64,000 bases of DNA. Origin: an uncultured virus (IMG/VR IMGVR_UViG_3300021400_004107) (taxonomy: Duplodnaviria; Heunggongvirae; Uroviricota; Caudoviricetes). A model generated the notes under the pieces. The model had not been told where the DNA came from. It saw only the letters and a list, made by a program, of their open reading frames with translations, and did not search any database. The DNA is taken from the IMG/VR virus record IMGVR_UViG_3300021400_004107. The stretch is one strand, 5' to 3'. The translations under genes were made by a program, and so were the position numbers. The stretch's first letter is position 1; each line of letters begins with the position of its first letter. Below are positions 25,107 through 44,899 of this stretch, in pieces.

Positions 25107-25766
25107 ATGGACGGTCGAGATCTTATGCTGTACGAAGACGCCAGGAAACTAAATCGAGCGTTAGAACTCATGAAAGAATTGAGTTTTGAGAGCGAGCTCG
25201 GCGTTAGTCTTAAGAACTCTTTGGCGAAGATCGAAGAGAGGTTTGAGAATTGGCGCCTCTTCGATGATTTCGAGAAAGCCGGGGATTTTTACACGGAGCA
25301 TCTGCCGAGGGAAGAAGGTGTCGACTTACGTATAAAGGCACCCGAGTCTATTGAGAACAAACTGCTTCGTACCAGACTTATGCAACAAAAAGGTGTTTTC
25401 AGGCCCTTTGAAAAGACGTTAAACGATTTAATGGGTTTGAGAATCATCGTAAGTGATTACAGTTTGTTACTAGGGCTGAGTTTAGGAGACGGTTACAGAA
25501 TTGTTGATATGTCTCAAGGGAAGGCTACAGATGACGGATATCGGGGTATCCATGTTTACTACCAGCCGGATCACAAGCATTATCCGGTAGAACTACAGAT
25601 CATGACGGAACAAGACAGAATATTTAATCTCTGGCTTCACGAATATACATACAAGATCCAAGGCAGAGAAGACGTTGGCAGGCAATTAAGGAAACTTTAT
25701 GAAAAGGGTGTTATTAGGACAGACAAGGATTTTAAGGAGAGTTTAGATGTATTACTTAGTCGTTAA
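25107..25766 (+). CDS. RelA/SpoT-domain protein (small alarmone synthetase-like nucleotidyltransferase)
   Basis: RIK..ESI..K, ND..G.RII, GYRGIH, ELQI.T motifs. Confidence 0.75.
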   Translation: MDGRDLMLYEDARKLNRALELMKELSFESELGVSLKNSLAKIEERFENWRLFDDFEKAGDFYTEHLPREEGVDLRIKAPESIENKLLRTRLMQQKGVFRPFEKTLNDLMGLRIIVSDYSLLLGLSLGDGYRIVDMSQGKATDDGYRGIHVYYQPDHKHYPVELQIMTEQDRIFNLWLHEYTYKIQGREDVGRQLRKLYEKGVIRTDKDFKESLDVLLSR

Positions 25767-25986
25767 GAGAATGGACGCGGGTCCCGGTGCTCATTACTTG
25801 GTAGCTCCATTTGAATACGAAGACAGGCAAGAAGCTCGCGCAATTCAGAGGGCGTCTGAAGGTTCGGGCATCTATGTTGCTATCGCCTCGAATGTATCAG
25901 ATGTTTACGGCGAGTATGCTAACCATGATGAAATCAGTCTCGAAGAACTCAAGGCGGTGCTTAGCGGCTGGGGAGCGCAACTTTGA
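25747..25986 (+). CDS. Small hypothetical protein overlapping the RelA/SpoT-like gene
   Basis: AAGGAG RBS, gene overlap. Confidence 0.55.
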   Translation: MYYLVVKRMDAGPGAHYLVAPFEYEDRQEARAIQRASEGSGIYVAIASNVSDVYGEYANHDEISLEELKAVLSGWGAQL

Positions 25987-25996
25987 GGTCTAAGTT

Positions 25997-26362
25997 ATGA
26001 TTTTTGAATTGTATAAGAGTGCTATATGTCAACGAGTTAAGTCGTGTGGGTACGAGGCTTTTGTAAAGGAGGTTTCTGCTTCTGACGAGATTCCTTCGTT
26101 GCTTGAGAAGCGCGAATTTGCAGAGGCTCTGTACTTGTTGGCGATGGTCGACTACCTTTCACGCAAGTACCGGATTCCTTTGTGCGAGCGTTTCGAATCT
26201 TTGAGAGGCTTGAAGTTGACTAAAACAATTTATCCTCGAGATATAGAGTTGTTGGCTACATTACAACACAGCGACGAAGTAAAAAAGAAAGCTTGGGAGG
26301 AAGCTATTCCCGAGTTCAAAAGGCACAACATAGTAGAAAACAACGTGGAGAATGTTTGCTGA
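25997..26362 (+). CDS. Hypothetical protein resembling TA-associated antitoxin C-terminal domain
   Basis: FELYKS.IC..VK, EALYLLAMVDYLSR, AIPEFKRHNIVE pattern. Confidence 0.5.
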   Translation: MIFELYKSAICQRVKSCGYEAFVKEVSASDEIPSLLEKREFAEALYLLAMVDYLSRKYRIPLCERFESLRGLKLTKTIYPRDIELLATLQHSDEVKKKAWEEAIPEFKRHNIVENNVENVC

Positions 26363-26499
26363 CTTCTCCTCGAATAAGGGAGGATGTTTTATTTCATACA
26401 CCTTTATTACAGGCAAAGCGTGAACTTGCATTGCCCTTGAAAAAACTTGCCCAGTGGGCTATATTATAAGTAAGAAAGATTACAGGAGATGTTTTCGAG

Positions 26500-26763
26500 A
26501 TGAAGGCTCTGTTTGAACAACTGGTAGAAAAGCTCAAGGCTCTCGGCTGCACCGAAGAAGAAGTCGGTGTGTTCTCCGAGGGTTTCGCGAAGCGCTGGGA
26601 ATCCTACGTTGCTCAGTACGGAGAGACTGAGGGCAGGAGCTATGCTCGTTTTGAGTTCGAGTCGTTGCAGGTAGAATTGTTGCAGCTCGAACGTGCCGGA
26701 GTCATCTCCCGTAGACAGCGTGAACAGCTCGAGAACTTTGTTTGGGAGGGTATTTCCGCATGA
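26500..26763 (+). CDS. Hypothetical protein
   Basis: Promoter and AGGAG RBS upstream. Confidence 0.55.
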   Translation: MKALFEQLVEKLKALGCTEEEVGVFSEGFAKRWESYVAQYGETEGRSYARFEFESLQVELLQLERAGVISRRQREQLENFVWEGISA

Positions 26764-27989
26764 ATAAGCGAATACTTAACGACAGATTGAATTTCGTAGG
26801 CGAAAATGACTATGGAGGACACGGTACAAAGACAGCTGTGCTTTACAACGGCAAGCGTTATCTTATGAAGATACCGGAACCGGTAAGAGAAACAAGCGAT
26901 TTAGACCTATCTCTGCATTCGGTTTCAGAATATATTTCCTGCCACATAGCACAATCTATGGGCCTTAATTGCCAAAATACCATCCTCGGTGAATGGACTG
27001 ACAACGACGGGCACAAGTATGATTGCTGCCTTTGTGAAGACTTTACATACGGTACTGATTATAAGTTGGCTGAAGTTAAGGCTATGTGCTATAAGTATGG
27101 CGACATGACTCAGGCAGAGCGCACTGCTCTCGAAGAAACGCCTACGTTCGAACGCATAGAGAATTTCTATAAGAGAGCCAAAAACATTGACGAAAAGGAA
27201 GCCTTGCGTGAGTTCGGCAGGATCTTCGTTCTGGATTCCTTCGTCGGCAATACGGATAGACATACAGGCAATTACGGTTTTCTGCAGAACTTGGCTACGG
27301 GTGAGATCAAGCCCTCTCCAATCTACGACTGCGGTTCTTCGCTGTTCCCTACTAAGTCCGATCAGGAGATATTGGGCAAGCCTTTGGGGTATCTTTCCGG
27401 GTCTGCGGACTCAGTTATCAGACAGCCCTCGAACGAGAAGTTGAGAATCAATTACAAAGCTTTCCTCTTCGAGGATAACCTTCCCTGGTACGTTCGTGAT
27501 GCAGTCCTGGAACTCGTCCCTCGCATCAATTTGGGCCAGATAAGAAGTTGCGTTGACTCAGCCGTGCCGTATATCTCACAGCAGAGAGCAGACATTCTGT
27601 ACAACGTGCTGGAATCCAGGTACAACGACACATTGATGCTGGCGTTCAAGAATCTCCTTACTAAGGATCTGGATTTGAACGCGGCGCAGAACGTCAACAC
27701 AAGAAGGATGCAGGAAGAGATCTTAAATCCGATTAAGAAGTATCCGATTAAGACGGATATTCCTGTAAAGTTGAATAACTCTTTCGTAAGTATCTTCCGC
27801 ATCAACGAGAATGTCGCCGTCGTTAAGAACGCGGAAGGGACACCAATCAGCTATCTCGATCTCAGACCTTCTAATAAGTATGTGATCAAGACAGCGGCAA
27901 GCCTTATGTCTAACGGTTTATTGCCCGACAGTTTCCTGTCAGGCCATCCTGCTCCTACAATACCGGGCGTCGGCGGTCTTATGAGGTGA
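26760..27989 (+). CDS. HipA-like kinase
   Basis: YGG.GTK, SEYISC.I, D..VGNTDRH.GNYG, PIYDCGSSL. Confidence 0.85.
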   Translation: MNKRILNDRLNFVGENDYGGHGTKTAVLYNGKRYLMKIPEPVRETSDLDLSLHSVSEYISCHIAQSMGLNCQNTILGEWTDNDGHKYDCCLCEDFTYGTDYKLAEVKAMCYKYGDMTQAERTALEETPTFERIENFYKRAKNIDEKEALREFGRIFVLDSFVGNTDRHTGNYGFLQNLATGEIKPSPIYDCGSSLFPTKSDQEILGKPLGYLSGSADSVIRQPSNEKLRINYKAFLFEDNLPWYVRDAVLELVPRINLGQIRSCVDSAVPYISQQRADILYNVLESRYNDTLMLAFKNLLTKDLDLNAAQNVNTRRMQEEILNPIKKYPIKTDIPVKLNNSFVSIFRINENVAVVKNAEGTPISYLDLRPSNKYVIKTAASLMSNGLLPDSFLSGHPAPTIPGVGGLMR

Positions 27990-28192
27990 CAATTGTGGAC
28001 ATACACTCTATCCGTAAACTATCAGGTCTTTCACAGATCGAGTTCTCGAGGACGTATGGCATACCGCTTCGAACACTCTGCCACTGGGAAAAAGGCGACA
28101 GAAAGACACCCGACTGGGCGTTAGCGCTCCTGGAACGGGTCGTCAGAGAAGACACGGAGAACGATAAGAATGGAGAATGCAGCAGAGTTTGA
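27986..28192 (+). CDS. XRE-type HTH protein (putative antitoxin)
   Basis: IR..SGLSQ.EFS..YGIPLRTL..WE.G.R.TP. Confidence 0.85.
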   Translation: MTIVDIHSIRKLSGLSQIEFSRTYGIPLRTLCHWEKGDRKTPDWALALLERVVREDTENDKNGECSRV

Positions 28193-28943
28193 TGATTTTA
28201 AGTTTCTGAGGCAGGGTTTCTACTGCCTCGGAGATGATGTGCCTGCTTGCGAGTCCGATCCTGAAGAGGAAATGCTCTGCGCTTATTTCGGCGAGTATTA
28301 TACCGAAGGCGAGTATCTGACCGAAGGATTTACCAGAGAAGACCTTCTCGACTGGGCTTATTACGATGGTGGTTACTACGGCTATGGTTACGGCTGTGGC
28401 TACGACCTCAGCGGAGTCTCTTACGCCGTCGACAGCAACATAGGCAACGAGCCTGCCGAGCATTCCATTTCCAAGAAGATCGACATTAAGAAGCAACAAG
28501 GTCCCAGATGCTCTGCGTACGCCTCTGCGCATCTTTTGCAGTTTTATGGCGTTAAGGCCAAGCCCAAGAAGCTCTACAAGCGCTTCCGTAAGCTCCCGGA
28601 CGGTTCTGCCATACCGTCATCCGTTGCCAAGGTCACGGGTTTTAAGATGCACCGTAACGGCAGCGTCACTGACATCGAGAGATCGATCGACGCCGACAAG
28701 CCGGTCATGGTCCTCGGTTACTACGATGATGAACCGAGTTGGGACAACCTGCATTATATGCTCGTTACAGGCTATGATGCCGAGAACATCTACATAGCAG
28801 ACTCGCTGCATACCTCAGGCGAGCGCTACTATAACCGTAAGATCAAGCGCGAGGATTTCGAGGAGATGTGGGACACCTCCGAGACTTTGCTCATTAAGAT
28901 CTTCTACGGCAGGAATATCTATTACGAATACAGCGAGGTTTGA
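28170..28943 (+). CDS. C39-like cysteine peptidase with acidic Tyr/Gly-rich N-terminus
   Basis: QQGPRCSAYA, HYMLVTGYD, YIADS. Confidence 0.7.
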   Translation: MENAAEFDDFKFLRQGFYCLGDDVPACESDPEEEMLCAYFGEYYTEGEYLTEGFTREDLLDWAYYDGGYYGYGYGCGYDLSGVSYAVDSNIGNEPAEHSISKKIDIKKQQGPRCSAYASAHLLQFYGVKAKPKKLYKRFRKLPDGSAIPSSVAKVTGFKMHRNGSVTDIERSIDADKPVMVLGYYDDEPSWDNLHYMLVTGYDAENIYIADSLHTSGERYYNRKIKREDFEEMWDTSETLLIKIFYGRNIYYEYSEV

Positions 28944-28945
28944 TC

Positions 28946-29749
28946 ATGACTCCAAGAGATGACAGAAAACTCGAGCTGTTGTATAAGATGCAACAGCCGT
29001 GCTACGACGACAATAAGGCCTTCACTAACACCGCTAAGCTCGACAAGATCCGCGAGCTCTCGGAAGGGAATAGTTACTCGGCGATCCGCGTTCAGGGCGA
29101 CCTGTTTCATCTGTGTTCCCAGTCGCCGTTAGACCGTCTGGATCCCGCACACACCATTGTACTCTCTACGCACGCAGACTTTGTGCCGGCGATCCAGAAC
29201 CCTTTCGTTGAAGTAAAGGGCGATGTCCTGCACGGTACGTTCGATAACTCGGCGACTAATGCCGCAGCGTTATACCTGATGCTGGAAGCGAACCTGCCGA
29301 TGAATGTCCTGGTCGCTTTTACCGGGAACGAGGAGCACGGTATGCGAGGCGCAGCTGAACTGGACAAGTTTCTTGTATCGCAGCTCGGTACGCATCCGTT
29401 CTATCTGACGCTGGACGTCACAAATATCGGCTATAAGAAGAAGCAATATTCCATTGAGAATACCTTCTCCTTACCTGAAGAGAACATTCAGGATTTGATT
29501 CAAATATGCAAGGGCACCGGTTACAACGGTTATCTGTACCCGCAAGCTCTTGCTGACGAGTCGTATGAGTACAGCAGGCTAGGTGCTAAGTGTTGTAGCT
29601 TTTGCGTTCCTACTAAGGGTCCTATGCATTCTGACAAGGGTTGCTCTATGGAACTTACGGCGTATTTGGCATACGTCGATGTTCTGGAACGCATTACCAA
29701 GTGGTTCAGGCCTCCTATGCCTGTGGCAGAAACAGGACTTGGCAGGTAA
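28946..29749 (+). CDS. M28/M20-like Zn metallopeptidase
   Basis: STHAD, GTFDN, FTGNEE.G, LDVT, MHS. Confidence 0.7.
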   Translation: MTPRDDRKLELLYKMQQPCYDDNKAFTNTAKLDKIRELSEGNSYSAIRVQGDLFHLCSQSPLDRLDPAHTIVLSTHADFVPAIQNPFVEVKGDVLHGTFDNSATNAAALYLMLEANLPMNVLVAFTGNEEHGMRGAAELDKFLVSQLGTHPFYLTLDVTNIGYKKKQYSIENTFSLPEENIQDLIQICKGTGYNGYLYPQALADESYEYSRLGAKCCSFCVPTKGPMHSDKGCSMELTAYLAYVDVLERITKWFRPPMPVAETGLGR

Positions 29750-29794
29750 GAGGAAGATCATGTGATAATTCCCGGCATTTTTGCGTTTTTGCTC

Positions 29795-29823
29795 TTGCAT
29801 TTCTGATAAGAAGTTGCTATATT
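29795..29823 (+). promoter_or_regulatory. sigmaA-type promoter of tnpB
   Basis: TTGCAT-17 nt-TATATT preceded by TGC. Confidence 0.65.
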
Positions 29824-29864
29824 ATTTGTATAGAAAAATATAGAAAGAATTGAGGGAATGCACT

Positions 29865-31265
29865 ATGCCCCGTTCAAAGGCGCAGAATCTGGCACACAAG
29901 GGATTTAAGTACCGCATCTATCCTGACGAGGAGCAGGCAAGGCTGATCCGTCAGAATTGCGGTGCGTCACGCTTTGTGTATAACTACGCACTTCGCTATA
30001 ACATTGATGCGAGGGACGCGGCTAAGGATGCGCTTGTGCGCGAGATCGAGGAGTTTGATGCTTCTTCTGAAGATAAGGCTCTGGCTTTGAATCTTGTCAA
30101 TATGACTTCCAAGGAACGTGCTAAGCATCTGTCTGAGATAACGGCTGGTAAGCTTAGAGAGCGCCTTCCCGAAGCGATCAAGGAAATGTACGCTAAGAGT
30201 GATTTTAACGCTTTTGCGATGCGTCCGGTTGTCGTCAGTCTGCGCGACGCGCTCGATGAAAACGGTGAGTATTCTTACGAGTGGCTCAAGAACTGTGACA
30301 ACGGTCTGTTCAGCTACGCGCTCGATGCTTTGGCCAAGGCTTTCGATAAGTGGAAGAAGGGTCAGGGCGGTTTCCCTAAGTTTAAGAACAGAGGGAACTC
30401 CAACAATTCTTACACTTCGCAGTGTGTCAACAACAACGTCAAGATCATAGATGATCGCTATGTTAAGCTTCCTAAGATCTCTCCTATCAAGATGATCTAT
30501 CACAGACCTGTTGAGGGCAAGATTAAGACTGCTACGGTGTCGTATACCGAGTCCGGCAAGTATTATGTCTCTTTGTGCTGTGAGTATGAGCAGCAGGAGA
30601 TGACTAACGGCGGTGACGTGGTCGGCATTGATGTTGGCATCAAGGAGTTCTACAGCGACTCCAAGGGCAATGTTGTTGATAACCCCAAGTTCTTGAAGAA
30701 GTCGGAAGAAAGACTTCTTAAGGAGCAGAAGCGTCTTTCTAAGATGATCGAGTCTCATATTGTAGAGTATAAGACTGGTCCGAGAGGTGGACGTGTTCCT
30801 GTTTTCGATAAGCCGATCCGCGAGTGCAAGAACATACAGAAGCAGAGAAGAAAGATCGCTAAGCTTCACGAGCACATTGCTAACCAGCGTGCGTATCTGC
30901 ACGATGTCGAGAGTTCCAGGATAGCGAAGGAGAACTCCTTGGTCTGCATGGAGACTTTGAATATCAAGGGCATGATGCAGAACTCGAAGCTCGCGCAGAG
31001 CATAGCCGATACAGGTTGGTATGATTTTAAGTCCAAGGTGAACTACAAGGTTAAGGATCACGGCGGAGTTGTCGTGGAGATACCGACATTCTATCCATCC
31101 TCACAGCTTTGTTCTGTTTGCGGATTTAAGAATAAGAAGATTAAGGATCTGAGTATCAGAGTCTGGAAGTGCCCTTCGTGCGGCGCGGTTCATGACCGAG
31201 ATGTGAATGCCGGAAAGAATATCTTAGCCGAAGGCTTAAGGATATTAGAAGGCATTGGAGCTTGA
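29865..31265 (+). CDS. tnpB: CRISPR-associated TnpB/Cas12-like RNA-guided nuclease (466 aa)
   Basis: KYRIYP..EQ..G..RFVYN N-terminus, GFPKFK, RuvC GIDVG / CMETL / HDRDVNA, CSVC..CPSC zinc finger; GAGGGA RBS. Confidence 0.93.
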   Translation: MPRSKAQNLAHKGFKYRIYPDEEQARLIRQNCGASRFVYNYALRYNIDARDAAKDALVREIEEFDASSEDKALALNLVNMTSKERAKHLSEITAGKLRERLPEAIKEMYAKSDFNAFAMRPVVVSLRDALDENGEYSYEWLKNCDNGLFSYALDALAKAFDKWKKGQGGFPKFKNRGNSNNSYTSQCVNNNVKIIDDRYVKLPKISPIKMIYHRPVEGKIKTATVSYTESGKYYVSLCCEYEQQEMTNGGDVVGIDVGIKEFYSDSKGNVVDNPKFLKKSEERLLKEQKRLSKMIESHIVEYKTGPRGGRVPVFDKPIRECKNIQKQRRKIAKLHEHIANQRAYLHDVESSRIAKENSLVCMETLNIKGMMQNSKLAQSIADTGWYDFKSKVNYKVKDHGGVVVEIPTFYPSSQLCSVCGFKNKKIKDLSIRVWKCPSCGAVHDRDVNAGKNILAEGLRILEGIGA

Positions 31266-31269
31266 TAAT

Positions 31270-31437
31270 TAAATAACAGTGTAGGAAGGTTGGCCTCCGA
31301 ACACTTAAAAATATACGTCTGTGGAGATCCAACGGCGTAGCTCAAGACTCAATCGGTTGACTCAGTTTGATCGAATGGCGAATAGCCGGTTTTGAGAGCG
31401 ATGCGGTCGTAGAAGCAGAAAATATGTGTAACTTGAG
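31270..31437 (+). ncRNA. omegaRNA(reRNA)-like scaffold / putative tracrRNA
   Basis: Hairpin AGTGT..ACACT; ACGTCTGTGGAG...GAAGCAGAAA motif like IS605-type TnpB RNAs; 3' end complementary to the repeat. Confidence 0.7.
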
Positions 31438-31984
31438 GGTCAAGACCTGATGTGTTTAACACAGTAGTCAAACACGGAATTCGCGGATCTTATCAAGACC
31501 TGATGTGTTTAACACGGTAGTCAAACGGGATGGTGCAACAAGAGATCGATCGCGTGGTCAAGGCCTGATGTGTTTAACACAGTAGTCAAACAGGCTGTTT
31601 GGTGTCGAGAGTCCTGAGGGCGGTCAAGACCTGATATGTTTAACACAGTAGTCAAACTTCTCTTTCAAGCATGGGATCAGACATTTTGGTTAAGACCTGA
31701 TGTGTTTAACACAGTTGTCAAACGAGATATGGAAGGGTAGAGGCTACGAAAAAGGTCAAGACCTGATGTGTTTAACACAGGAGTCAAACGAGATATGGAA
31801 GGGTAGAGGCTACGAAAAAGGTCAAGACCTGATGTGTTTAACACAGGAGTCAAACATATATGCAAGTCCTGCTCCTAGCAGGCGAGGTCAAGACCTGATG
31901 TGTTTAACACAGTAGTCAAACTTTCGTTATAATCAATATAGCGTCTTTTTGGTCGAGACCTGATGTGTTTAACAGTAGTCAAAC
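31438..31984 (+). CRISPR. CRISPR array: 9 repeats (consensus GGTCAAGACCTGATGTGTTTAACACAGTAGTCAAAC), 8 spacers (17,29,30,30,30,30,30,29 nt); divergent 10th repeat at 32014-32049
   Basis: Repeats start at 31438, 31491, 31556, 31622, 31688, 31754, 31820, 31886, 31951. Confidence 0.96.
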
Positions 31985-32135
31985 GAGAGAAACTCCTTTG
32001 AGGAAGCATGTGAGTTTGAGAACTGGTGGCTTTTGCATTGTGACCAAACGTCACACAGTATAACCATTGGTAAGGGGGGTATAAAATTACCCGTTCGCCG
32101 AAAAATATAACTGCTATGACAAGGGAAACAAAGAT

Positions 32136-32891
32136 ATGAACGTATTAGTCATACCCGATTCGCACTTGAGAGCCTGGATGTTCGACAGCGCAGACAAAAT
32201 AATTCAGCAGCATAAGCCCGATAAGGTCGTTGTGCTTGGGGACCTGGTAGATGACTGGGACCAGCAGCGCTGCGTCGTGCTGTATCAGAAGATGATGGAC
32301 AAGTGCGTAGAATTCGCAACTAAGTACCCGGATACGGTCTGGCTCTACGGCAATCATGACATCGCCTATTTGGACGCAGCGTGTCAGTGCTCCGGACACT
32401 CCGTCTTTGCCACGGCCACAGTAGCAGAAGGTCTGAACAGAATCCAAAACGCCCTCAATGATGAGATCAGGATCGTGGCAAGGATAGACGACGTGTTCTT
32501 TTCTCATGCCGGACTTGCCGAAGTGGAATGCCAGCTGTCGAAGGAAGCGGCGAGCAGGGAAGCAGAGTGGGATCTTATAACAAAGCATTTTAATCAGATG
32601 AATTATCGTAAGCTCTGGACTGATCTGTCGCCGATCTGGTATCGTCCGAATAACAGGTTTTTGCCATATTCTGCGGGCGGATGTCTTCAGGTGGCAGGTC
32701 ATACGCCGGTCCGCATGGCAGGTCTGTTTCAAAATCTGCTTATCACAGACACGTTCTCCACGGACAGAGTGCTCAGACCATTGGGTAATCAGTATTTTAC
32801 TATGGTCGACACTAAGACACACGAGTTGATGTTCTTCGACAAGGAGGCCGGAATCGTTACAAATACCGAAGTTGTCAGCGTTATGCGATAG
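32136..32891 (+). CDS. Calcineurin-like metallophosphoesterase
   Basis: DSH, GDLVD, GNHD, SHAG, GHTP. Confidence 0.85.
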   Translation: MNVLVIPDSHLRAWMFDSADKIIQQHKPDKVVVLGDLVDDWDQQRCVVLYQKMMDKCVEFATKYPDTVWLYGNHDIAYLDAACQCSGHSVFATATVAEGLNRIQNALNDEIRIVARIDDVFFSHAGLAEVECQLSKEAASREAEWDLITKHFNQMNYRKLWTDLSPIWYRPNNRFLPYSAGGCLQVAGHTPVRMAGLFQNLLITDTFSTDRVLRPLGNQYFTMVDTKTHELMFFDKEAGIVTNTEVVSVMR

Positions 32892-33005
32892 GAGTTATTA
32901 TTTATAGAAATATATAGATAAATATTGAAAATAATTCTAAGGATGGCTATATTATATATAAGAAGATAGGTATAGATACATCTCTTAGAAGGGAGACAGA
33001 AGAAT

Positions 33006-33749
33006 ATGAAACACGACAAACGCAATGTAAAACTTATCGCCATGATCGTTATGATCGGCATTAGTGCTACGGCACTTACTGCTTGCCTCAGCAAATGTTC
33101 CAATAAAGGTACTACTAATGAGACTGTAGAGAGCGTTATCGCTACCGAGCCTGTTGAAACGACTGAGGCTTCTGAGCCTACAGTTACTCCGACTGTTACA
33201 GTCAAACCTACGGCTACTCCCAAACCTACTGCTACGGTAACTCCTACAACCGCTGTTACTGAGAATGGTGGCGAGGGTACAGAGGCTACTACGACAGCAA
33301 CGGCTACGCCTACGACAGCTGGGATTAAACCTACTGCGGCAGCTCCTACTGAGGCTCCTGCTACTCAGCCTACAGCAACTGAAGCACCTGCTACACAGCC
33401 TGCGGCTACCGAGGCTCCTGCTGTTCAGCCTACAGCTGCGCCTGAACCTACTGCGACGCCTACACCTGAGCCTACAGCTACTCCGACACCAGAGCCTACG
33501 GAACCCGAAGAACTTAACTATTGCACAGTAGATCTTGAAGTTAGAGCCGGTACGGGGGAATGGGTGTCCTATTACACAATTTACGGCTACACTGCTAATT
33601 GTGTAAACGGCGTTTGGGAAGTTAGAAACAGCGAAGCGGATAGAGCTGAGGCGGATATTCAGGCTTTGTATGAAACAGACTGGGGCTTCCCTTGTGGCGG
33701 TTGCGGTTGGACTCTCACTAATTTCAGAGATTACAGAGCAAATCCATGA
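33006..33749 (+). CDS. Pro/Thr/Ala-rich lipoprotein
   Basis: Signal peptide with LTAC lipobox; TEAPATQP and TPEPT repeats. Confidence 0.8.
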   Translation: MKHDKRNVKLIAMIVMIGISATALTACLSKCSNKGTTNETVESVIATEPVETTEASEPTVTPTVTVKPTATPKPTATVTPTTAVTENGGEGTEATTTATATPTTAGIKPTAAAPTEAPATQPTATEAPATQPAATEAPAVQPTAAPEPTATPTPEPTATPTPEPTEPEELNYCTVDLEVRAGTGEWVSYYTIYGYTANCVNGVWEVRNSEADRAEADIQALYETDWGFPCGGCGWTLTNFRDYRANP

Positions 33750-33769
33750 TCATTGAGGAAAGGAGACAA

Positions 33770-33815
33770 ACGACGGAGCCTTCGGGCTCCGCCTTTATTT
33801 TTTGTCTGTCTATGC
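33770..33815 (+). repeat. 46-bp direct repeat containing a terminator, copy 1
   Basis: Identical to 34612-34657; CGGAGCC-TTCG-GGCTCCG hairpin + T-tract. Confidence 0.9.
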
Positions 33816-33853
33816 TGATGAATGGTCAGATTAAAATATGTTGTTGATATAAG

Positions 33854-34549
33854 GTGGTATATATGGACTTAAGAAATGAATTAAAACATTTAATTGATAA
33901 TCCTCTTAAACCCAACCCGTCTGAATGGGCTATGGATGCAGAAGACGTATTGGATAAAATGAATAGCCTTTCGGAAGAAGCACGGAGACACATTAAAATA
34001 ATCAAAATGCACGGTGGAGCATTTATGCAAGATAATGATGCTCTTGTTGCTATTTTGAAAAGAGCCTATAAAGCTGTGGCGGTGACAATTGTGCCTCCGC
34101 CGATCAAAACAAGGCATCAAGTATTTGTTGCAATGAAGTTCGATGATGAGCGTGAACGTTTGTATAAAGAAGTATTGACTCCAGTAGTTCAATCAGCGAA
34201 TTATTCAATAATTAAGGTCAATGAACAGGAATACGAAGGATCTGTTATTGAAAAGATAATTGATGATATTACTGATTCAACAATTCTGATCGCTGATTTA
34301 ACTGGAAATCGTGGTGGTGTGTATTATGAATTGGGTATAGCAAGGGGGCTTCAATTATGCAACCACCCCATCAAAATAATTCTTACTTGTGAAAAAGTTT
34401 TCTTTGATAGTGAGGGAGTTCATTTTGATGTTCAAGGAGATAACATCATTCTTTACACTTCTGATATTGATTATAAAGAAAAATTGACTCGAAGGATTCA
34501 GGCGTATCAAAGCAAAAAAGAGAATGATGATCATTATGCCCAGACCTAA
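33854..34549 (+). CDS. Nucleoside 2-deoxyribosyltransferase/TIR-like protein (AT-rich, putative defence effector)
   Basis: QVFVAM.F, IADLTGNRGGVYYE.G.A, VHFD. Confidence 0.7.
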   Translation: MVYMDLRNELKHLIDNPLKPNPSEWAMDAEDVLDKMNSLSEEARRHIKIIKMHGGAFMQDNDALVAILKRAYKAVAVTIVPPPIKTRHQVFVAMKFDDERERLYKEVLTPVVQSANYSIIKVNEQEYEGSVIEKIIDDITDSTILIADLTGNRGGVYYELGIARGLQLCNHPIKIILTCEKVFFDSEGVHFDVQGDNIILYTSDIDYKEKLTRRIQAYQSKKENDDHYAQT

Positions 34550-34613
34550 GAAAGACGGTAAAGTAATAAATTAATATGTACGGAAAGACTTGGCTGATCG
34601 CCTTGATCTATAC
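34536..34613 (+). pseudogene. Remnant of RHH-type gene (MPRPKKDGKVIN*YVRKDLADRLDLY)
   Basis: In-frame stop and truncation at the direct repeat. Confidence 0.4.
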
Positions 34614-34657
34614 GACGGAGCCTTCGGGCTCCGCCTTTATTTTTTGTCTGTCTATGC
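34612..34657 (+). repeat. 46-bp direct repeat containing a terminator, copy 2
   Basis: Identical to 33770-33815. Confidence 0.9.
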
Positions 34658-34712
34658 ACAAATAGTTACATTTTTGATATTATAATTAAGAAATAGATGA
34701 GAGGAGCGGAGT

Positions 34713-35903
34713 ATGGCAGGGAATAAAGACTTAGGCAAGGCCAAAGATGCTAAGAAAGACGAGTTTTATACTCAATTAGAAGATATAGAGCTTGAAATGA
34801 AGCATTACAAACAGCACTTCAAAGGCAAGACTGTATTCTGTAATTGTGACGACCCATATGAAAGCAACTTCTTCAAGTATTTTGCTATGAACTTTAACTA
34901 CCTGGGTCTTAAGAAACTTATTTCGACTTGTTATGTCTCCTCGCCTGTAATGTACACTCAACTGTCATTGTTCGATGACATGGAACAGACTTTTGAGAAG
35001 CCTGCAGATCCGAATAAGAAACCATATAAAGTTGAAATCACCGAAGTTACAGACGAAAATGGCGACGGTGCGTTCGATCTGGATGATATAAAGCAGCTCC
35101 TAAAGAGTAAAAAGAATGTCTGTACTGTCTTAAAAGGTGACGGAGATTTTCGTTCTGATGAGTGTGTTGAACTCTTAAAAGAAGCGGATATTGTGGTTAC
35201 TAATCCGCCATTCAGTTTATTTCGGGAATATGTATCACTTCTGACGAAATATGGTAAGGATTTTATCATTCTTGGTAATCAGAACGCGATTAACTATAAG
35301 GAAGTTTTTCCTTTGATAAAAGCTAATAAGGTTTGGCTCGGGGCCAGTATACACAGTGGAGACAGAGAATTCCGTGTTCCTGACGATTATCCGCTGCAAG
35401 CATCGAGTTATCGTGTGGATGATGAGGGCATCAAATATATTCGGGTAAAGGGAGTGCGTTGGTTTACCACTCTTGATTACGAAGAGCGACACGAAGATTT
35501 GATCCTATATAAATCATATGCACCAGCAGAATATCCTAAATATGATAACTATGACGCTATCGAGGTAGCAAAGACCGCCGAAATCCCTTGTGATTATTAC
35601 GGTGTCATGGGGGTACCCATTACATTTATGGATAAGTACAACCCAGATCAGTTCGAAATAGTAGGCATCAGTAAGACCTGGGCGACCGATTACGAGGTAA
35701 CTAAGTCAAAAGTATATAGAAACGCTGTTCAGTATAACAAGGATGGTACAAGGACATCTGGAAACAAGGTCAATGATGGCAGCGTCATTGCCTTAACCGA
35801 AAAACCGGAAGGAACCTATTACATGGATGACGCGTCTCCGGATAGGTATCTTGTACAGGTTTATGCCCGTATATTTATTCGCAGAAAGGAGCAACCCGTA
35901 TGA
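34713..35903 (+). CDS. EcoRI-family adenine DNA methyltransferase
   Basis: AK.DEFYT, CNCDDP, GDFRS.EC, VTNPPFSLFR, MGVPITF. Confidence 0.9.
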   Translation: MAGNKDLGKAKDAKKDEFYTQLEDIELEMKHYKQHFKGKTVFCNCDDPYESNFFKYFAMNFNYLGLKKLISTCYVSSPVMYTQLSLFDDMEQTFEKPADPNKKPYKVEITEVTDENGDGAFDLDDIKQLLKSKKNVCTVLKGDGDFRSDECVELLKEADIVVTNPPFSLFREYVSLLTKYGKDFIILGNQNAINYKEVFPLIKANKVWLGASIHSGDREFRVPDDYPLQASSYRVDDEGIKYIRVKGVRWFTTLDYEERHEDLILYKSYAPAEYPKYDNYDAIEVAKTAEIPCDYYGVMGVPITFMDKYNPDQFEIVGISKTWATDYEVTKSKVYRNAVQYNKDGTRTSGNKVNDGSVIALTEKPEGTYYMDDASPDRYLVQVYARIFIRRKEQPV

Positions 35904-36991
35904 AGATCGATCTTCACGAAATTACAGTAAAAGATGTAACTGAAGGATTTAAGGATTCTGCTGAGAACGGAGTTGTGGGTTATAACGGCAAGCTCAATAT
36001 CCGCCCTGCGTTTCAGCGTGAGTTCGTCTATTCAGGCAAGCAGCGTGATGAAGTTATAAATACTGTTCGCAACGGCTTCCCCCTTAACGTGATGTATTGG
36101 GTAAAGTCTGACGACGGCAACTATGAGCTCCTGGACGGCCAGCAGCGCACGTTATCCATCTGCCAGTATGTAAACGGCGATTTCTCTCTTAACAGCAAAT
36201 ACTTCCATAACCTGACACAGACTGAGAAAGACCAGATCCTGAACTACAAGCTCATGATCTACATCTGTGAGGGCAATGACAAAGAGAAACTCGACTGGTT
36301 CAAGATCATAAATATCGCCGGCGAAGAGCTGACAGCTCAGGAGCTCCGCAACGCAATCTACACAGGTCCGTTCATCTCCGATGCCAAGCGTTACTTCAGT
36401 AAGTCCGGCTGTGCAGCATATCAGATCGCAGGTGACTACATGTCCGGATCTGCTATTCGCCAGGACTACTTAGAAGCCGCCATCAGCTGGATCGCAGCCA
36501 GAGAGGATAAGTCCATCGAGGACTACATAGCCGAGCACCAGCACGATGCCAATGCCAACGCGCTCTGGCTCTATTTCCAGCAGGTCATAAGCTGGGTCAA
36601 AGTCGTGTTCCCGAAGTACCGTAAGGAGATGAAAGGCTTACCTTGGGGCATCTATTTCAATAAGTATGGTGCTAATTCCTATGATGCCAATGTCCTTGAA
36701 GAGCGCATTGTCGAGCTTATGGAGGATGAAGAAGTTACCAGCAACAAGGGTATCTATGAGTATCTGCTCTCGGGTAACGAGAAGACTCTGAGCCTAAGGG
36801 CTTTTCCGGATAAGATAAAGAGAGCTGTCTACGAGAAGCAGGGTGGTAAGTGCGCCTTCTGCGGGCAATCTTTCCCGATCGAGCGCATGCAGGGCGATCA
36901 TATCGTTGCCTGGAGCAACGGTGGCACTACAGTCATCGAGAACTGTCAGATGCTCTGCGCTCAGTGCAACGGTACGAAGTCCAATCACTGA
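35900..36991 (+). CDS. DUF262 + HNH restriction endonuclease
   Basis: RP.FQRE.VY, DGQQR; C-terminal C..C..DH...W..GG.T..N.Q.LC..CN. Confidence 0.88.
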   Translation: MKIDLHEITVKDVTEGFKDSAENGVVGYNGKLNIRPAFQREFVYSGKQRDEVINTVRNGFPLNVMYWVKSDDGNYELLDGQQRTLSICQYVNGDFSLNSKYFHNLTQTEKDQILNYKLMIYICEGNDKEKLDWFKIINIAGEELTAQELRNAIYTGPFISDAKRYFSKSGCAAYQIAGDYMSGSAIRQDYLEAAISWIAAREDKSIEDYIAEHQHDANANALWLYFQQVISWVKVVFPKYRKEMKGLPWGIYFNKYGANSYDANVLEERIVELMEDEEVTSNKGIYEYLLSGNEKTLSLRAFPDKIKRAVYEKQGGKCAFCGQSFPIERMQGDHIVAWSNGGTTVIENCQMLCAQCNGTKSNH

Positions 36992-36995
36992 CACT

Positions 36996-37160
36996 ATGGA
37001 TCGGTCTGACTACAACAACCTCACGCCTGAAGAAAAGCGCCGTCAGCTCTACCTTATCCAGAAAAACACCCTGGATAAGTTCCTGGAGCGTAAAGCTATA
37101 TCCGAATACCAATACGAACAGAGTCTCCGGGAGCTTCAGACCAAGATGTGCCTTCAATAA
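36996..37160 (+). CDS. Small hypothetical protein
   Basis: ATG five nt after the HNH gene stop. Confidence 0.45.
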   Translation: MDRSDYNNLTPEEKRRQLYLIQKNTLDKFLERKAISEYQYEQSLRELQTKMCLQ

Positions 37161-37296
37161 ACTCTTCTCTTATCTACTCAAAAGCCTATTCTCAAAGGTC
37201 GGGAAAATAAATCCTGTCTCCTCTACTTAATTTTGCATTTTTTGTAACATTACACGCTATAATATAAATAAGGAATATTTATAAGGATGTAATGTT

Positions 37297-38502
37297 ATGA
37301 CAATCGATAAACGAGAAGGTAAGAAGGGTGTGTCTTACCGTATAAGGGTGTACGCCGGAGCAGACGCTACAGGCAAAAAGAGGTTTTTTGTCGAGACATA
37401 CAATCCGCCTCCGGGTATGTCGGCCAGGCAGGCTTATAAGGAGGCTTATCAGATCGGGCTTGAACTTGAAAAGCGTTGCGAAAAGGGCGCTCCGGTTGAG
37501 TACGACCGCTTGACTTTCGCAGAGTTTGTGAACGGTATGTACACAGAACAGCACTTATCCAAGCTCAAGTCACGCACCAGAGCCGGATACCTGGAGATAC
37601 TTAATGCGAGGATCCTGCCGTACTTCGGCAGTATGTACCTGCGCAAGATCAAACCCGGTACTATCCGTGCGTGGCTCGACGGTCTCAAGAGATTCGACAC
37701 CAGCCCTTTCAAAGGCGAACTTACCGATACCAGCAAAGCTGATTGGCTGAGGACGTTATCTGCAGTGCTCGGTAAGGCTTACGAGTGGGAGCTCATAGAC
37801 GAGAATCCCTGCCGGCGCGTCAAATCGCCTACCAAAGCTAAGATCAATGTTGTTGCATGGCAACTGGAAGACGTTAGGAAAGTTTTGACCAGTCTTGACG
37901 CTTATAAGAACATCCGCGCATGCATGTTCATACTGGTCGCATTGAACTCGGGACTTCGTGAAGGCGAACTTGCGGGACTGCAATGGTCTGACTTTGATTT
38001 TGAGGATAATAAGTTCTCTGTCAACCGTACGATCCACTACGAAAAGGGAGGCTTGGTTGTCGATACTCCTAAGACTCAACATGGCTATAGAGACATTCCG
38101 TTCAGTGACGCTTTGAAAGACAAACTCCTGCAATATAAGATCTGGCAAGACGAACAGATAGAAAAGCTCGGCGACCGGTATTTGGGGAATCCTGGCCTTA
38201 ATGCCAATGTCTTTATGGCCAAAAACGGAAAACCCGTCTATGATACTACATTTCGCAAGTGGCTCAGGGATTACTGTGAGTGGTGTGGCGTGCCGAGGAT
38301 CCCTGTCCATGCTTTGAGACATACCTTCGCTTCCGTGCTTATAGCCAACAATGTCGATGCCAGAACAGCTGCGGATCTTCTGGGTCACGCGTCGGCGTCT
38401 CTGGTCCTTGACGTGTATGCAAATCCGCAGGACGAAGCCAAGAAAAGAGCTGTTAAAAAATTAGACGACGTGTATAATAATTCAGACAGCAAAAAGCCGT
38501 AA
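37297..38502 (+). CDS. Tyrosine integrase
   Basis: GLREGE..GL.W.D, PKT, HALRHT, LLGH, Y catalytic pattern; N-terminal arm-binding region. Confidence 0.95.
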   Translation: MTIDKREGKKGVSYRIRVYAGADATGKKRFFVETYNPPPGMSARQAYKEAYQIGLELEKRCEKGAPVEYDRLTFAEFVNGMYTEQHLSKLKSRTRAGYLEILNARILPYFGSMYLRKIKPGTIRAWLDGLKRFDTSPFKGELTDTSKADWLRTLSAVLGKAYEWELIDENPCRRVKSPTKAKINVVAWQLEDVRKVLTSLDAYKNIRACMFILVALNSGLREGELAGLQWSDFDFEDNKFSVNRTIHYEKGGLVVDTPKTQHGYRDIPFSDALKDKLLQYKIWQDEQIEKLGDRYLGNPGLNANVFMAKNGKPVYDTTFRKWLRDYCEWCGVPRIPVHALRHTFASVLIANNVDARTAADLLGHASASLVLDVYANPQDEAKKRAVKKLDDVYNNSDSKKP

Positions 38503-42477: not shown

Positions 42478-42571
42478 TGGCGTCGACTGCGGGACTTGAA
42501 CCCACACATCCTGCTTAAGGACTACTCACGGTTTAGCAAACCGCTGCCTTACCAATTCGGCTCAAGTCGAC
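42478..42571 (-). tRNA. tRNA-Ser(GCT)
   Basis: Cloverleaf, long variable arm, encoded CCA. Confidence 0.85.
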
Positions 42572-42581
42572 ATAGCATCGA

Positions 42582-43139
42582 TCATCTCGACATCCCGAGA
42601 CGCTCTGCAATCTTTTCTTCGATGTCTCTCATTATCGTATCTATCGACACCGGTTCACAGTTATGGGCGTCACAGGCCACGTTATACATGAACGGGTTGT
42701 CTTCGTAGAACTTATCCGGACTGTGGGTGTGACCGAACAGGTTGATCACGGCTCTGTCAGGATCCTTATCGTATTCTGCGGTCAGGGTCGGATAGTGACA
42801 AAGAAAGAACTGGTGCTTACGGATCTTTAGCAGCTGTGCATAGCTGATCTCAACGATATTCGGCAGCTCAGAGTAAAGTTCGAGCTTAGCCGGGGTGTCG
42901 TGGTTGCCGGCAATCAGATGGATCTTTCCCGGCAGTGCGGCTGCCGTATTCTTAATAGATTCTACGTCAGAGCCCAGGAACATATCACCTAAGACATATA
43001 CATCGTCGTCCGGCTTGATCATCTTCTTCCAGTTTCTGAGGATCTTCTCATTCATTTGCTCAACAGAGTTGCATCCGCGCGGGGCATAGACAAATTCCCG
43101 GTCATGATTCAAATGCATGTCGCTTATAAAATAGATCAT
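42582..43139 (-). CDS. Calcineurin-like phosphoesterase embedded in the tRNA array
   Basis: SDMH..H, LGD, GNHD, CHYP, GHTH. Confidence 0.85.
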   Translation of the reverse strand: MIYFISDMHLNHDREFVYAPRGCNSVEQMNEKILRNWKKMIKPDDDVYVLGDMFLGSDVESIKNTAAALPGKIHLIAGNHDTPAKLELYSELPNIVEISYAQLLKIRKHQFFLCHYPTLTAEYDKDPDRAVINLFGHTHSPDKFYEDNPFMYNVACDAHNCEPVSIDTIMRDIEEKIAERLGMSR

Positions 43140-43171
43140 TTTTCATATTTCCTTTTCTATAGTGTAGTGAT

Positions 43172-43247
43172 TGGCACCCGCACAGGGACTTGAACCCCGA
43201 ACTTCTGAGTCAGAGTCAGATACGTTACCGCTTACGCCATACGGGTA
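43172..43247 (-). tRNA. tRNA-Gln(CTG)
   Basis: Cloverleaf, CCA. Confidence 0.9.
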
Positions 43248-43258
43248 TGAAATGAAAA

Positions 43259-43330
43259 GTGAGCAAACAGGATTCGAACCTGTACCCCCGGCCGTCACTC
43301 GTGTGTGCTTCCGATTACACCATTGCTCAA
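43259..43330 (-). pseudogene. Degenerate tRNA (acceptor, D and T arms present; anticodon arm unpaired; no CCA)
   Basis: GAGCAA/TTGCTC acceptor, CAGGTTCGAATCCTG T arm. Confidence 0.55.
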
Positions 43331-43425
43331 GATACTTATCGGTGTTACATTCTCTTCTTCAGATCATTCCGGACTTCACCTCGGTCAACAATATATCCTT
43401 GACTTTCTCCTCTTTACTTTTCAAA

Positions 43426-43514
43426 TGGCGCTACAGACAGGACTCGAACCTGCATGTCCCGCTAAGGACTGCCTGCTCTCCAAGCAGGTGCTCCACCAAT
43501 TGAGCGACTGCAGC
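43426..43514 (-). tRNA. tRNA-Ser(GGA)
   Basis: Cloverleaf, CCA. Confidence 0.9.
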
Positions 43515-43519
43515 GTGTT

Positions 43520-43604
43520 TGGCGCCGTGCACAGGACTCGAACCTGCAAACCGTTTCCGGTCAAATGCTTTCAAAACACCTTCCTCACCACCCGGACACA
43601 CGGC
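43520..43604 (-). tRNA. tRNA-Ser(TGA)
   Basis: Cloverleaf, CCA. Confidence 0.85.
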
Positions 43605-43608
43605 GTAT

Positions 43609-43684
43609 TGGGGCTCACAGTCGGGATCGAACCGACGACTTCATCCTTACCATGGATGTACTCTGCCTGCTGAGTTATGCGAGC
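43609..43684 (-). tRNA. tRNA-Thr(GGT)
   Basis: Cloverleaf, CCA. Confidence 0.9.
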
Positions 43685-43688
43685 TTAT

Positions 43689-43774
43689 TGGCGACAGACA
43701 GAGGTGTCGATCCTCATCCTTTTGAGACCACTTGTTTTCGAAACAAGGTCAGGAGCCGTCCTGATTTATCTGTC
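43689..43774 (-). tRNA. tRNA-Ser(CGA)
   Basis: Cloverleaf, CCA. Confidence 0.8.
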
Positions 43775-43776
43775 AT

Positions 43777-43850
43777 TGGCTGCTCTTGAAAGAATCGAAC
43801 TTTCTCCTAAGGTGTCAAAGGCCCCGGCGCTACCATTACGCTAAAGAGCA
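43777..43850 (-). tRNA. tRNA-Gln(TTG)
   Basis: Cloverleaf, CCA. Confidence 0.85.
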
Positions 43851-43854
43851 ATAT

Positions 43855-43930
43855 TGGTGATCCCGCAGGGACTCGAACCCTGAGCTGTTCGGTTCGTAGC
43901 CGAGTAGTCTTCCAGTTGGCTTACAGGACC
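43855..43930 (-). tRNA. tRNA-Arg(ACG)
   Basis: Cloverleaf, CCA. Confidence 0.88.
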
Positions 43931-43933
43931 ATT

Positions 43934-44007
43934 TGGAGCGTCTCGTGAGAGTTGAACTCACAGTAAACGGTTTTGCAGACCGATCGCCTTCCGCAGACAA
44001 GAGACGC
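43934..44007 (-). tRNA. tRNA-Cys(GCA)
   Basis: Cloverleaf, CCA. Confidence 0.82.
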
Positions 44008-44012
44008 ATAAG

Positions 44013-44088
44013 TGGTTGGAACACAAGGACTCGAACCTTGAACCGATCGGATATAAGCCGACTGCTCTGCCAGTTGCGCTATGTTCCA
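44013..44088 (-). tRNA. tRNA-Ile(TAT)
   Basis: Cloverleaf, loop CT-TAT-AT, CCA. Confidence 0.88.
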
Positions 44089-44092
44089 GTGT

Positions 44093-44166
44093 TGGTTGGT
44101 ATGACAGGAATCGGACCTGTATTAACCGCGTATCAGACGGTCTTCCTACCATTGAAAGACATACCA
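44093..44166 (-). tRNA. tRNA-Ile(GAT)
   Basis: Cloverleaf, CCA. Confidence 0.85.
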
Positions 44167-44170
44167 GTGT

Positions 44171-44257
44171 TGGTGCCGCCTGAGGGTATCGAACCCACTC
44201 GAGTCTGATGACAGCGGATTTACAGTCCGCTCCGCCTCCTTAACGGGTTACGACGGC
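44171..44257 (-). tRNA. tRNA-Tyr(GTA)
   Basis: Cloverleaf, long variable arm, CCA. Confidence 0.88.
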
Positions 44258-44264
44258 ATATGTT

Positions 44265-44409
44265 AAGCCAAGCAAGATTTGCACTTGCACCTCCGACTCC
44301 ACGCCGGTAGTCTTTGTCGCGGTTAATTACTCCGCCGAGACCGTTCCGGACGCCGCATGCTACGCGCGCTTGATGCTTTGTTCGGACGAGTCCTTTAACA
44401 TATTGGCTT
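44265..44409 (-). ncRNA. tRNA-like RNA with expanded interior
   Basis: AAGCCAA/TTGGCTT acceptor-like stem, GCAAG-TGCAAAT-CTTGC T arm. Confidence 0.55.
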
Positions 44410-44410
44410 C

Positions 44411-44739: not shown

Positions 44740-44743
44740 ATGT

Positions 44744-44816: not shown

Positions 44817-44820
44817 ATAT

Positions 44821-44895: not shown

Positions 44896-44899
44896 ATGT

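Follow-up and report, generated by a model that had tools for sequence, protein, structure and literature searches.

How does an RNA-guided nuclease of the TnpB family come to lie directly in front of a CRISPR array, and do the two work together? The question is raised by a locus in a stretch of 64,000 nucleotides (nt) of DNA, hereafter the window, from an uncultured virus of the Caudoviricetes (IMG/VR record IMGVR_UViG_3300021400_004107). An original prediction, made from the letters alone, had described there a stand-alone TnpB coupled to a CRISPR array, i.e. a compact intermediate between TnpB and Cas12, used by a conjugative element. The coupling itself was recovered in our computational analysis: a gene of TnpB lineage is followed, on the same strand, by a CRISPR-like array. 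We regard the locus, with moderate confidence, as encoding a domesticated RNA-guided DNA nuclease of TnpB lineage that belongs with the TranC or type V-U systems and travels as cargo on a conjugative element. The coordinates of its parts are collected in Table 1.

The nuclease open reading frame (ORF) encodes 466 amino acids (aa) when started from its ATG, and 471 aa if a TTG at position 29850 is used. Three Pfam families were found on the protein, all above their gathering cutoffs: HTH_OrfB_IS605, OrfB_IS605 (RuvC) and the Cas12f1-like TNB zinc ribbon. Among the NCBIfam models, guided_TnpB scored 298.9 bits (cutoff 100), the narrower IS200_TnpB 385.3 bits, which is under its cutoff of 425, and V_cas_c2c8 117.7 bits, far under its cutoff of 350. 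The PADLOC models for Cas12u4 and Cas12f, which have no curated cutoff, gave ∼192 bits, less than the TnpB models (385 and 299). The N-terminus reads FKYRIYP. The RuvC triad (D256/E363/D446) and the zinc finger (C416/C419/C436/C439) fall in invariant or nearly invariant columns of a 16-sequence alignment of the clade, and both sets of motifs line up with the same motifs in a TnpB-like PDB chain. ORF, Pfam and NCBIfam models and alignments therefore agree on the protein that had been announced, a TnpB type of 466 aa with a KYRIYP N-terminus, an intact RuvC D-E-D and a zinc finger.

When the nuclease was compared by sequence with solved structures, the best matches were the TnpB of ISDra2 (186 bits) and a TnpB-like nuclease designed by artificial intelligence. 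LaTranC gave 128 bits, over residues 304-462 only, i.e. the C-terminal third, and the solved Cas12f and Cas12n chains were much weaker (E = 1e-20 or worse). An AlphaFold model of the nuclease had a mean predicted local distance difference test score of 75.9, with two RuvC segments poorly predicted. The closest fold to this model was 8h1j, which is ISDra2 TnpB, and LaTranC ranked fourth. We conclude that the nuclease belongs to the TnpB lineage, and is nearer to ISDra2 TnpB than to LaTranC, Cas12n or Cas12f. Relative to ordinary TnpBs it has ∼65 extra residues, located after the first long helix (around residues 50-130) and modelled as confident helices. In the model, this helical insertion would amount to an enlarged recognition (REC) region, or REC lobe.

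The nearest proteins outside the nuclease's own cluster, in a search of 5.8 billion protein clusters, were 54% identical by BLASTP and up to 61% in an alignment, and most of these relatives have the ordinary TnpB length. In a quick maximum-likelihood tree of the 60 best hits, sequences P0001 to P0016 formed a clade with full support and a stem of 0.62, within which P0001, P0008 and P0013 sit on long basal branches. P0008 (453 aa) has an insertion similar to that of the nuclease. By these sequences, the nuclease belongs to a small and well-separated clade. The origin of the system had been called recent, a word that finds no support in nearest relatives of only 54-61% identity and a nuclease placed on a long branch.

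Is this gene still part of a transposon? Domains were scanned in 69 of 70 selected window ORFs of at least 70 aa, the omitted one being an artefact ORF within the array. Neither a tnpA (Y1) or serine transposase domain nor a cas1, cas2 or cas4 domain was detected among them, as expected from the claim that the window is devoid of tnpA and cas genes. The window has a single copy of tnpB, and no second copy was found in 24.5 kb taken from the matching contig. With no tnpA and a single copy, tnpB does not qualify as part of a transposon. The situation differs from that of ISDra2 TnpB in that the window has neither tnpA nor recognisable transposon ends, although no model dedicated to such ends was run. 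The gene had also been credited with its own promoter. A consensus scan did not bear this out, as no promoter-like site was present upstream of tnpB, and the region held 2 sites for 3.1 expected from shuffles. The top promoter-like site of the region (31904-31933, plus strand, TTAACA and TATAAT spaced by 18 nt, 11/12 matches) arises from repeat 8 and spacer 8 within the array, and is probably fortuitous.

The array is built on a 36-nt repeat of consensus GGTCAAGACCTGATGTGTTTAACACAGTAGTCAAAC, and repeat 1 starts 172 nt 3′ of the tnpB stop, exactly the distance given in the original prediction. The successive start-to-start distances of the repeats are 53, 65, 66, 66, 66, 66, 66 and 65 nt, and the spacers measure, in order, 17, 29, 30, 30, 30, 30, 30 and 29 nt. 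Repeats are 89-100% identical apart from the terminal one (31951-31984), which is degenerate, 34 nt long with one substitution, and sits at the array end far from the module described below. The repeat that follows spacer 1 has an altered 5′ end, with TA instead of GG. Spacers 5 and 6 are identical, forming an exact tandem duplicate. Such regularity is not a product of chance. Compared with the earlier description of 9-10 repeats with distinct ∼30-nt spacers, the number of repeats (9) and the usual spacer length (29-30 nt) hold, whereas only 7 of the 8 spacers are distinct and the first one has 17 nt.

No Rfam family matched positions 29500-32300 at E values up to 1, CRISPR repeat families included. 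In IMG/VR, the match to the repeat core in locus L081 was discarded as a single chance match within an unrelated ORF. A 17-nt inverted repeat between spacer 1/repeat 2 and positions 29039-29055, with only ∼10 contiguous nt in common with the spacer, was likewise taken as chance.

Between gene and array lies a non-coding module of 160 nt, which begins 12 nt past the tnpB stop and abuts repeat 1 without a gap. Its start was revealed by a second copy. Scanning metagenome contigs with the repeat yielded one contig of 126 kb, which contains a locus (L121) identical to window positions 25447-37921 and, ∼67 kb away, a second locus (L122) with another copy of window positions 31278-31473, i.e. module plus repeat 1 (L122:5767-5960, 88% identity over 196 nt). 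The homology between window and L122 starts exactly at 31278. In the L122 cassette, the module is followed by two repeats separated by a spacer of 31 nt, and there is no nuclease gene upstream. The cassette (L122:5767-6027) is flanked on one side by a lipoprotein-like gene and on the other by the gene of a SpaA-type surface protein exceeding 1896 aa, and a HipA-like gene is found nearby, as in the window. No terminator was predicted 3′ of either array, in the window or in L122; a hairpin followed by a T-run, seen by eye 3′ of the L122 cassette, is consequently not claimed as one. Searches for further scaffold homologues with blastn and nhmmer in all 122 fetched loci returned only L121 and L122.

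Table 1. Position of the features that make up the nuclease locus (window coordinates)
Feature	Position	Strand	Basis or description
TnpB-family RNA-guided nuclease gene	29865..31265	+	ORF, profile matches, alignment, fold model
Conserved 160-nt non-coding module (putative omega-RNA-like scaffold, tracr-like leader)	31278..31437	+	homology to L122, run contigs
Variable hairpin within the module	31353..31374	+	alignment, strain variants, folds
CRISPR-like array	31438..31984	+	36-nt repeat in 9 copies, the last one degenerate; 8 spacers, 7 of them distinct
First spacer	31474..31490	+	17 nt only

The differences between the module copies are unevenly spread. The first 56 nt are identical in the window and L122, the last 40 nt carry 4 differences, and the changes are concentrated in the central hairpin. 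This hairpin exists in three versions (window, L122 and the strains of sequencing runs X5 and X6, the latter with variants at 31358, 31360, 31364, 31366 and 31368), which are 5-8 positions apart and all still form stem-loops. Read manually pair by pair, the changes convert U-G to C-G, G-U to G-C and A-U to G-U, and create a new loop-closing C-G. Since the central hairpin varies while keeping its structure, our reading is that the module is probably a structured RNA and not a DNA leader. In a consensus fold computed from the window and L122 copies, none of the 51 pairs is broken, 1 shows a compensatory change and 6 show a one-sided change; these counts weigh little because only two sequences are compared, to which the fold had itself been fitted.

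Module, repeat 1 and spacer 1 are contiguous, giving a scaffold of ∼196 nt with a guide at its 3′ end. The module runs straight into repeat 1, and the whole therefore has the layout of a TnpB omega-RNA. By our own reading, the repeat would hold a hairpin, CUGAUGUGU-UUA-ACACAGUAG, separated from the guide by a tail of 6 nt, UCAAAC. The description of the ISDra2 omega-RNA (PMC10097598) places stem 4 and a short pseudoknot strand in front of the guide, together called the crRNA-like part (crRNA standing for CRISPR RNA) of a ‘natural sgRNA’ (single guide RNA). By analogy, the hairpin and tail of the repeat may correspond to this ‘stem 4 + pseudoknot strand’. Owing to this resemblance with the guide-proximal part of the ISDra2 omega-RNA, the array looks like a reiterated 3′ end of the scaffold.

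This layout also allows another view, in which only contiguous single guides would work: the module with the first repeat and spacer, like the orphan cassette of L122, would act as an ordinary omega-RNA, the further repeats being by-products of serial duplication of the 3′ end, with little or no function. Altae-Tran et al. (2023, PMC10691335) indeed derive arrays from omega-RNA segments that were duplicated in series, the module abuts repeat 1 unbroken both in the window and in L122, spacers 5 and 6 are an exact tandem duplicate, and the window has no adaptation genes. However, seven distinct spacers of uniform 29-30 nt and repeats kept at 89-100% identity, save the terminal one, are unexpected under neutral duplication, and the very spacer on which this view relies, spacer 1, is the one truncated to 17 nt. 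We consider it distinctly unlikely.

How is the locus distributed? Part of the locus stretch was present in 20 of the 22 listed sequencing runs, from 9 studies, all of animal gut by record, and six of these runs are RNA libraries. In two RNA libraries of different studies (X3 and X9), contigs cover gene and module as well as the array as far as its duplicated spacer. Contig depth over 31272-31791, compared to the ORF, was 21 versus 4 in X3 (∼5 fold) and 7-9 versus 2.7 in X9 (∼3 fold), while the ratio of module and array to ORF was ∼1-1.5 in two DNA runs. We take the excess in RNA libraries as no more than a weak hint, contig depth being a poor measure to which the orphan copy also contributes. 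Positions 32000-32207 were not covered by contigs in any of the four runs examined.

The strains seen in these runs differ from the window in several respects. Those of X5 and X6 share spacers 3 and 4 with it; they also have a repeat followed by 255 nt unlike the window, so that array content or trailer varies among strains. Within tnpB, 6 of the 8 listed strain differences are synonymous (12 further differences in a 3.1-kb stretch lie beyond this listing), which suggests that tnpB is under purifying selection. The order gene-module-array is kept in strains in which a flanking gene has diverged by ∼10%. Another contig of X6 has only 34 nt in common with the window (31190-31223, in the zinc-finger region), with other sequence on both sides, a sign that the sample contains a second TnpB-like gene unlike this one.

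Run contigs join three different upstream sequences at position 31278, namely the end of tnpB, that of L122 and, in run X6, a third. Such cassettes without tnpB, in L122 and in the third context of X6, would be expected if the module-array cassettes served another effector encoded elsewhere, tnpB being merely adjacent to one of them. Against such a chance neighbourhood, the module starts just 12 nt from the stop codon, the order gene-module-array has survived the divergence of the flanking gene, and the array is downstream on the same strand, as described for nearly all conserved associations of Cas12 with arrays (PMC10691335). The array, moreover, matches no CRISPR repeat family of Rfam. Together, these points make a chance neighbourhood quite improbable.

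To what extent does the association hold beyond these strains? In a genome-contig search for close relatives, the best identity was 45% among the matches listed, and the IMG/VR, plasmid and phage collections contained no relative above 45% identity. None of the 399 sampled genomes of the class Clostridia had a match at E ≤ 1e-95 (2 genomes were unscored). Among the loci of 119 distant relatives, unrelated tandem repeats were found upstream of the gene in 3, and an array 3′ of the gene in 1 (L120). This last locus (L120:3001-5013), on an IMG/VR viral contig of 253 kb, has a TnpB-like gene of 26% identity and, ∼200 nt later, an array of 9 repeats; from its sequence it looks like another phage-borne locus of mini type V-like organisation.

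Several results weigh against the reading that we favour, that of a TnpB-lineage nuclease guided by the array with the help of the module. The linkage of gene and array is conserved in near-identical strains, the surrounding DNA of the homologues at 54-61% identity being outside this comparison, and among the distant relatives an array follows the gene in that single locus only. Adaptation genes (cas1, cas2, cas4) are missing from the ORFs scanned, and the locus does not rank as a canonical adaptive CRISPR-Cas system. As to the RNA, the fold of the module is no more stable than that of shuffled sequences (z = -0.60 and -0.14), and contigs from RNA libraries prove neither transcription nor strand nor processing. 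There is no significant anti-repeat in the module: the best duplex between repeat and module has -18.1 kcal/mol, against a mean of -19.0 (standard deviation 2.9) for shuffles, and 56% of 500 shuffled repeats match or beat it. The lone 6-nt complement of the repeat tail (GUUUGA, 31365-31370) is not preserved in L122 or in X5/X6. In our own reading of the array's repeat variants, the outer portion of the proposed repeat hairpin is disrupted as frequently as it is maintained; the inner stem survives by wobble in 1 case, and pairs are broken in 3. Finally, the spacers yielded no target. Protospacers were absent from the window and the fetched loci and from 72,556 plasmid records, and 50,697 phage records gave only 23-nt matches at chance level (E = 7). 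A search of IMG/VR with the 5′ 23 nt of spacers 3, 5 and 7, i.e. 3 of the 7 distinct ones, gave none either, spacers 2, 4 and 8 and those of L122 being outside this last search. For the use against competing elements or phages put forward by the original prediction, no protospacer was thus found in the collections searched, and it is from the context that such a role is proposed.

In a first scan for anti-repeats, the best duplex apart from those of repeat 1 involved the 3′ end of the tnpB ORF (around 31232-31265, -19.1 kcal/mol). This candidate was rejected, as it lies outside the part conserved in L122.

The lack of a significant anti-repeat, together with the internal hairpin of the repeat, would be accounted for if no tracrRNA (trans-activating CRISPR RNA) were used at all. 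The 160-nt stretch would then be only a CRISPR leader or promoter, and the repeat hairpin and tail would suffice as a guide handle, in the style of Cas12a or Cas12m, short crRNAs acting alone. A leader common to several arrays of one genome is normal for CRISPR, and the orphan array of L122 has the same one. However, the nearest protein, ISDra2 TnpB, needs a long scaffold with an upstream pseudoknot strand, and the 160-nt stretch is found exactly where the scaffold of a TnpB omega-RNA lies. Its conservation is highest at the far 5′ end (56 nt identical to L122), and its structure-keeping central hairpin suggests an RNA, not a DNA leader. A guide free of tracrRNA is, for these reasons, an unlikely explanation.

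A last alternative is that the locus is a decaying relic, no longer functional. The truncated first spacer, the degenerate last repeat, the several repeat variants and the failure to find a target could all be taken as signs of decay. The ORF is nevertheless intact with all its catalytic residues, strain differences are mostly synonymous, and the locus is widespread (9 studies) and present in contigs of RNA libraries, which leaves decay as a very improbable outcome.

How does the locus compare with known systems? The kind of system, TranC or type V-U, is already in print, and we set the locus beside it by means of the published descriptions. Associations of TnpB with arrays in the absence of other cas genes have been reported as 40 candidate branches, V-U6 to V-U45, with the array nearly always downstream, and often on plasmids (PMC10691335); the 2025 classification of CRISPR-Cas systems counts ∼50 independent TnpB-array events (PMC12669027). 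The locus resembles these V-U branches (PMC10691335), and the V-U bin of the classification (PMC12669027), as far as they are described there, by its TnpB branch with a downstream array, by having no other cas gene and by its location on a mobile element; a V-U branch was accepted there when one clade contained two or more clusters with arrays. In the TranC concept (Jin et al., Cell 2025), the transposon RNA has been functionally split into a tracrRNA and a crRNA (PMC13565253; bioRxiv 10.1101/2025.09.28.678669; 10.64898/2026.03.27.714800). TranC arrays are described with repeats of 32-38 nt, in numbers of 3-20, with no accessory genes, and with a tracrRNA identifiable in two clades only (PMC13565253; bioRxiv 10.64898/2026.03.27.714800).

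By these published accounts, the locus is like TranC in having a TnpB-like effector of near-TnpB size, a downstream array, no cas accessory genes and a scaffold between gene and array, and also in its 36-nt repeats (reported range 32-38), its 9 repeats (reported range 3-20) and its gut source of Bacillota type. It is unlike TranC, as described, in having no clear anti-repeat. LaTranC (clade 11, 574 aa), the only TranC of solved structure, is not close to the nuclease, which it matches only within residues 304-462 (128 bits, compared to 186 for ISDra2 TnpB), and the enlarged bridge helix reported for TranC clade 3 differs from the insertion of the nuclease, made of helices after the N-terminal helix. 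With ISDra2 TnpB (8h1j, 8exa), the nuclease shares the domain order, the RuvC triad and the zinc finger, and in both loci the scaffold comes immediately behind the gene and ends, on its 3′ side, with the guide. Unlike in ISDra2, the REC region has ∼65 extra residues, the 36 nt at the 3′ side of the scaffold occur 9 times over, with different guides, and the scaffold begins past the stop, with no overlap of the ORF, as judged from the start of the L122 homology. Cas12f (V-F), Cas12n (V-U4/c2c9) and c2c8 (V-U2) are likewise miniature effectors, with a tracrRNA between gene and array or within the gene; the nuclease differs from them in that their models score below those of TnpB (for c2c8, 118 bits versus a cutoff of 350). 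The system is possibly a new clade within the TranC/V-U kind, a comparison made here with published descriptions and not with the sequences of the published clades, which include TranC 3, 4, 6, 9, 11, 20 and 24 and V-U6 to V-U45.

The genomic setting agrees with the conjugative element of the original prediction. Between 3.6 and 38.5 kb, the window encodes a MobA/VirD2 relaxase, a coupling protein, PrgI, a VirB4-like ATPase, a large NlpC/P60 hydrolase, a sigma factor and a RecD2-like helicase, and a tyrosine integrase is found at 37297-38502. Upstream of the nuclease locus are a HipA-like kinase, which matches a candidate defence family, and two peptidases. Downstream come a metallophosphatase, a weak TIR-like match and a type II restriction-modification pair. 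Surrounded as it is by conjugation genes, an integrase and defence-type neighbours, the nuclease locus thus falls within the part of a conjugative element that holds cargo or defence genes. A topoisomerase search returned, as named matches, proteins of Lachnospiraceae and Lawsonibacter, at only 42% identity.

Some of these neighbours can be described further. The HipA-like kinase (26742-28192, plus strand, 415 aa, PADLOC candidate family PDC-M03A) is followed by a 68-aa helix-turn-helix protein, with which it may form a toxin-antitoxin or defence pair. The restriction-modification pair (34713-36991, plus strand), recognised with PADLOC, comprises an EcoRI-like adenine methyltransferase (412 bits) and a restriction enzyme with GmrSD_N and HNH (453 bits), and the weak TIR-like match is in the ORF just upstream (33854-34549). 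A lipoprotein-like ORF (33006-33749, plus strand) has tandem repeats rich in Pro, Thr and Ala, with periods of 15 to 30 nt at 33331-33499. Past the integrase are phage-like replication genes and 32 tRNA genes, the latter predicted by ARAGORN in a cluster at 42478-47462 (minus strand), 27 of them also at the Rfam threshold. Neighbours of this cluster are a PD-(D/E)XK/DUF2800 nuclease, a metallophosphatase and, as phage-like replication genes, a VapE-like primase, a family A DNA polymerase, VRR-NUC and SNF2. The layout recalls that of large phages or phage-plasmids, here next to the integrase of a conjugative element. A sequence of ∼450 nt is present three times (window 3-469 and 52664-53133, and L122:4140-4640, 84-91% nucleotide identity); the ORFs that overlap with it, of 162 and 147 aa, match no Pfam family, and there was no Rfam match either.

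The reading that we favour leads to the following scheme. Module, repeat 1 and spacer 1 would form one contiguous, omega-RNA-like single guide, of ∼196 nt plus the guide, in which the repeat, and hence each 36-nt repeat of the array, would be equivalent to the last 36 nt of the scaffold. The downstream repeat-spacer units would act as crRNA-like modules, completed in trans by the 160-nt module in the role of a tracrRNA. Once loaded, the nuclease would cut DNA that matches a spacer beside a 5′ target-adjacent or protospacer-adjacent motif (TAM/PAM), most likely in competing mobile elements or phages. Any new spacers would have to come from machinery encoded elsewhere, or from recombination.

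A more far-reaching version can be proposed, which we hold only tentatively and rather doubt. The locus would represent an independent transition from TnpB to CRISPR, outside the published TranC and V-U clades, in which the whole guide-proximal hairpin and tail has been reiterated, instead of the RNA being split within a repeat:anti-repeat stem. The 160-nt scaffold with its repeats would be a portable cassette, present in nuclease-less copies across the same large mobile replicon, and one 466-aa nuclease would be served in trans by several guide loci in the conflicts between mobile elements.

Current views are not overturned by this locus, as dozens of such transitions are already catalogued. 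The points of note are the orphan guide cassette, the unsplit junction between scaffold and array, and the conjugative-element setting. If active, the nuclease would be a programmable enzyme that has a single-guide form by nature and whose 466 aa are a convenient size for delivery, and the locus would capture the path from TnpB to Cas12 at a stage where an unsplit omega-RNA and an array share one transcript-like unit. Together with the conjugative setting, the presence of a guide cassette without nuclease on the same replicon suggests a use in mobile-element conflicts.

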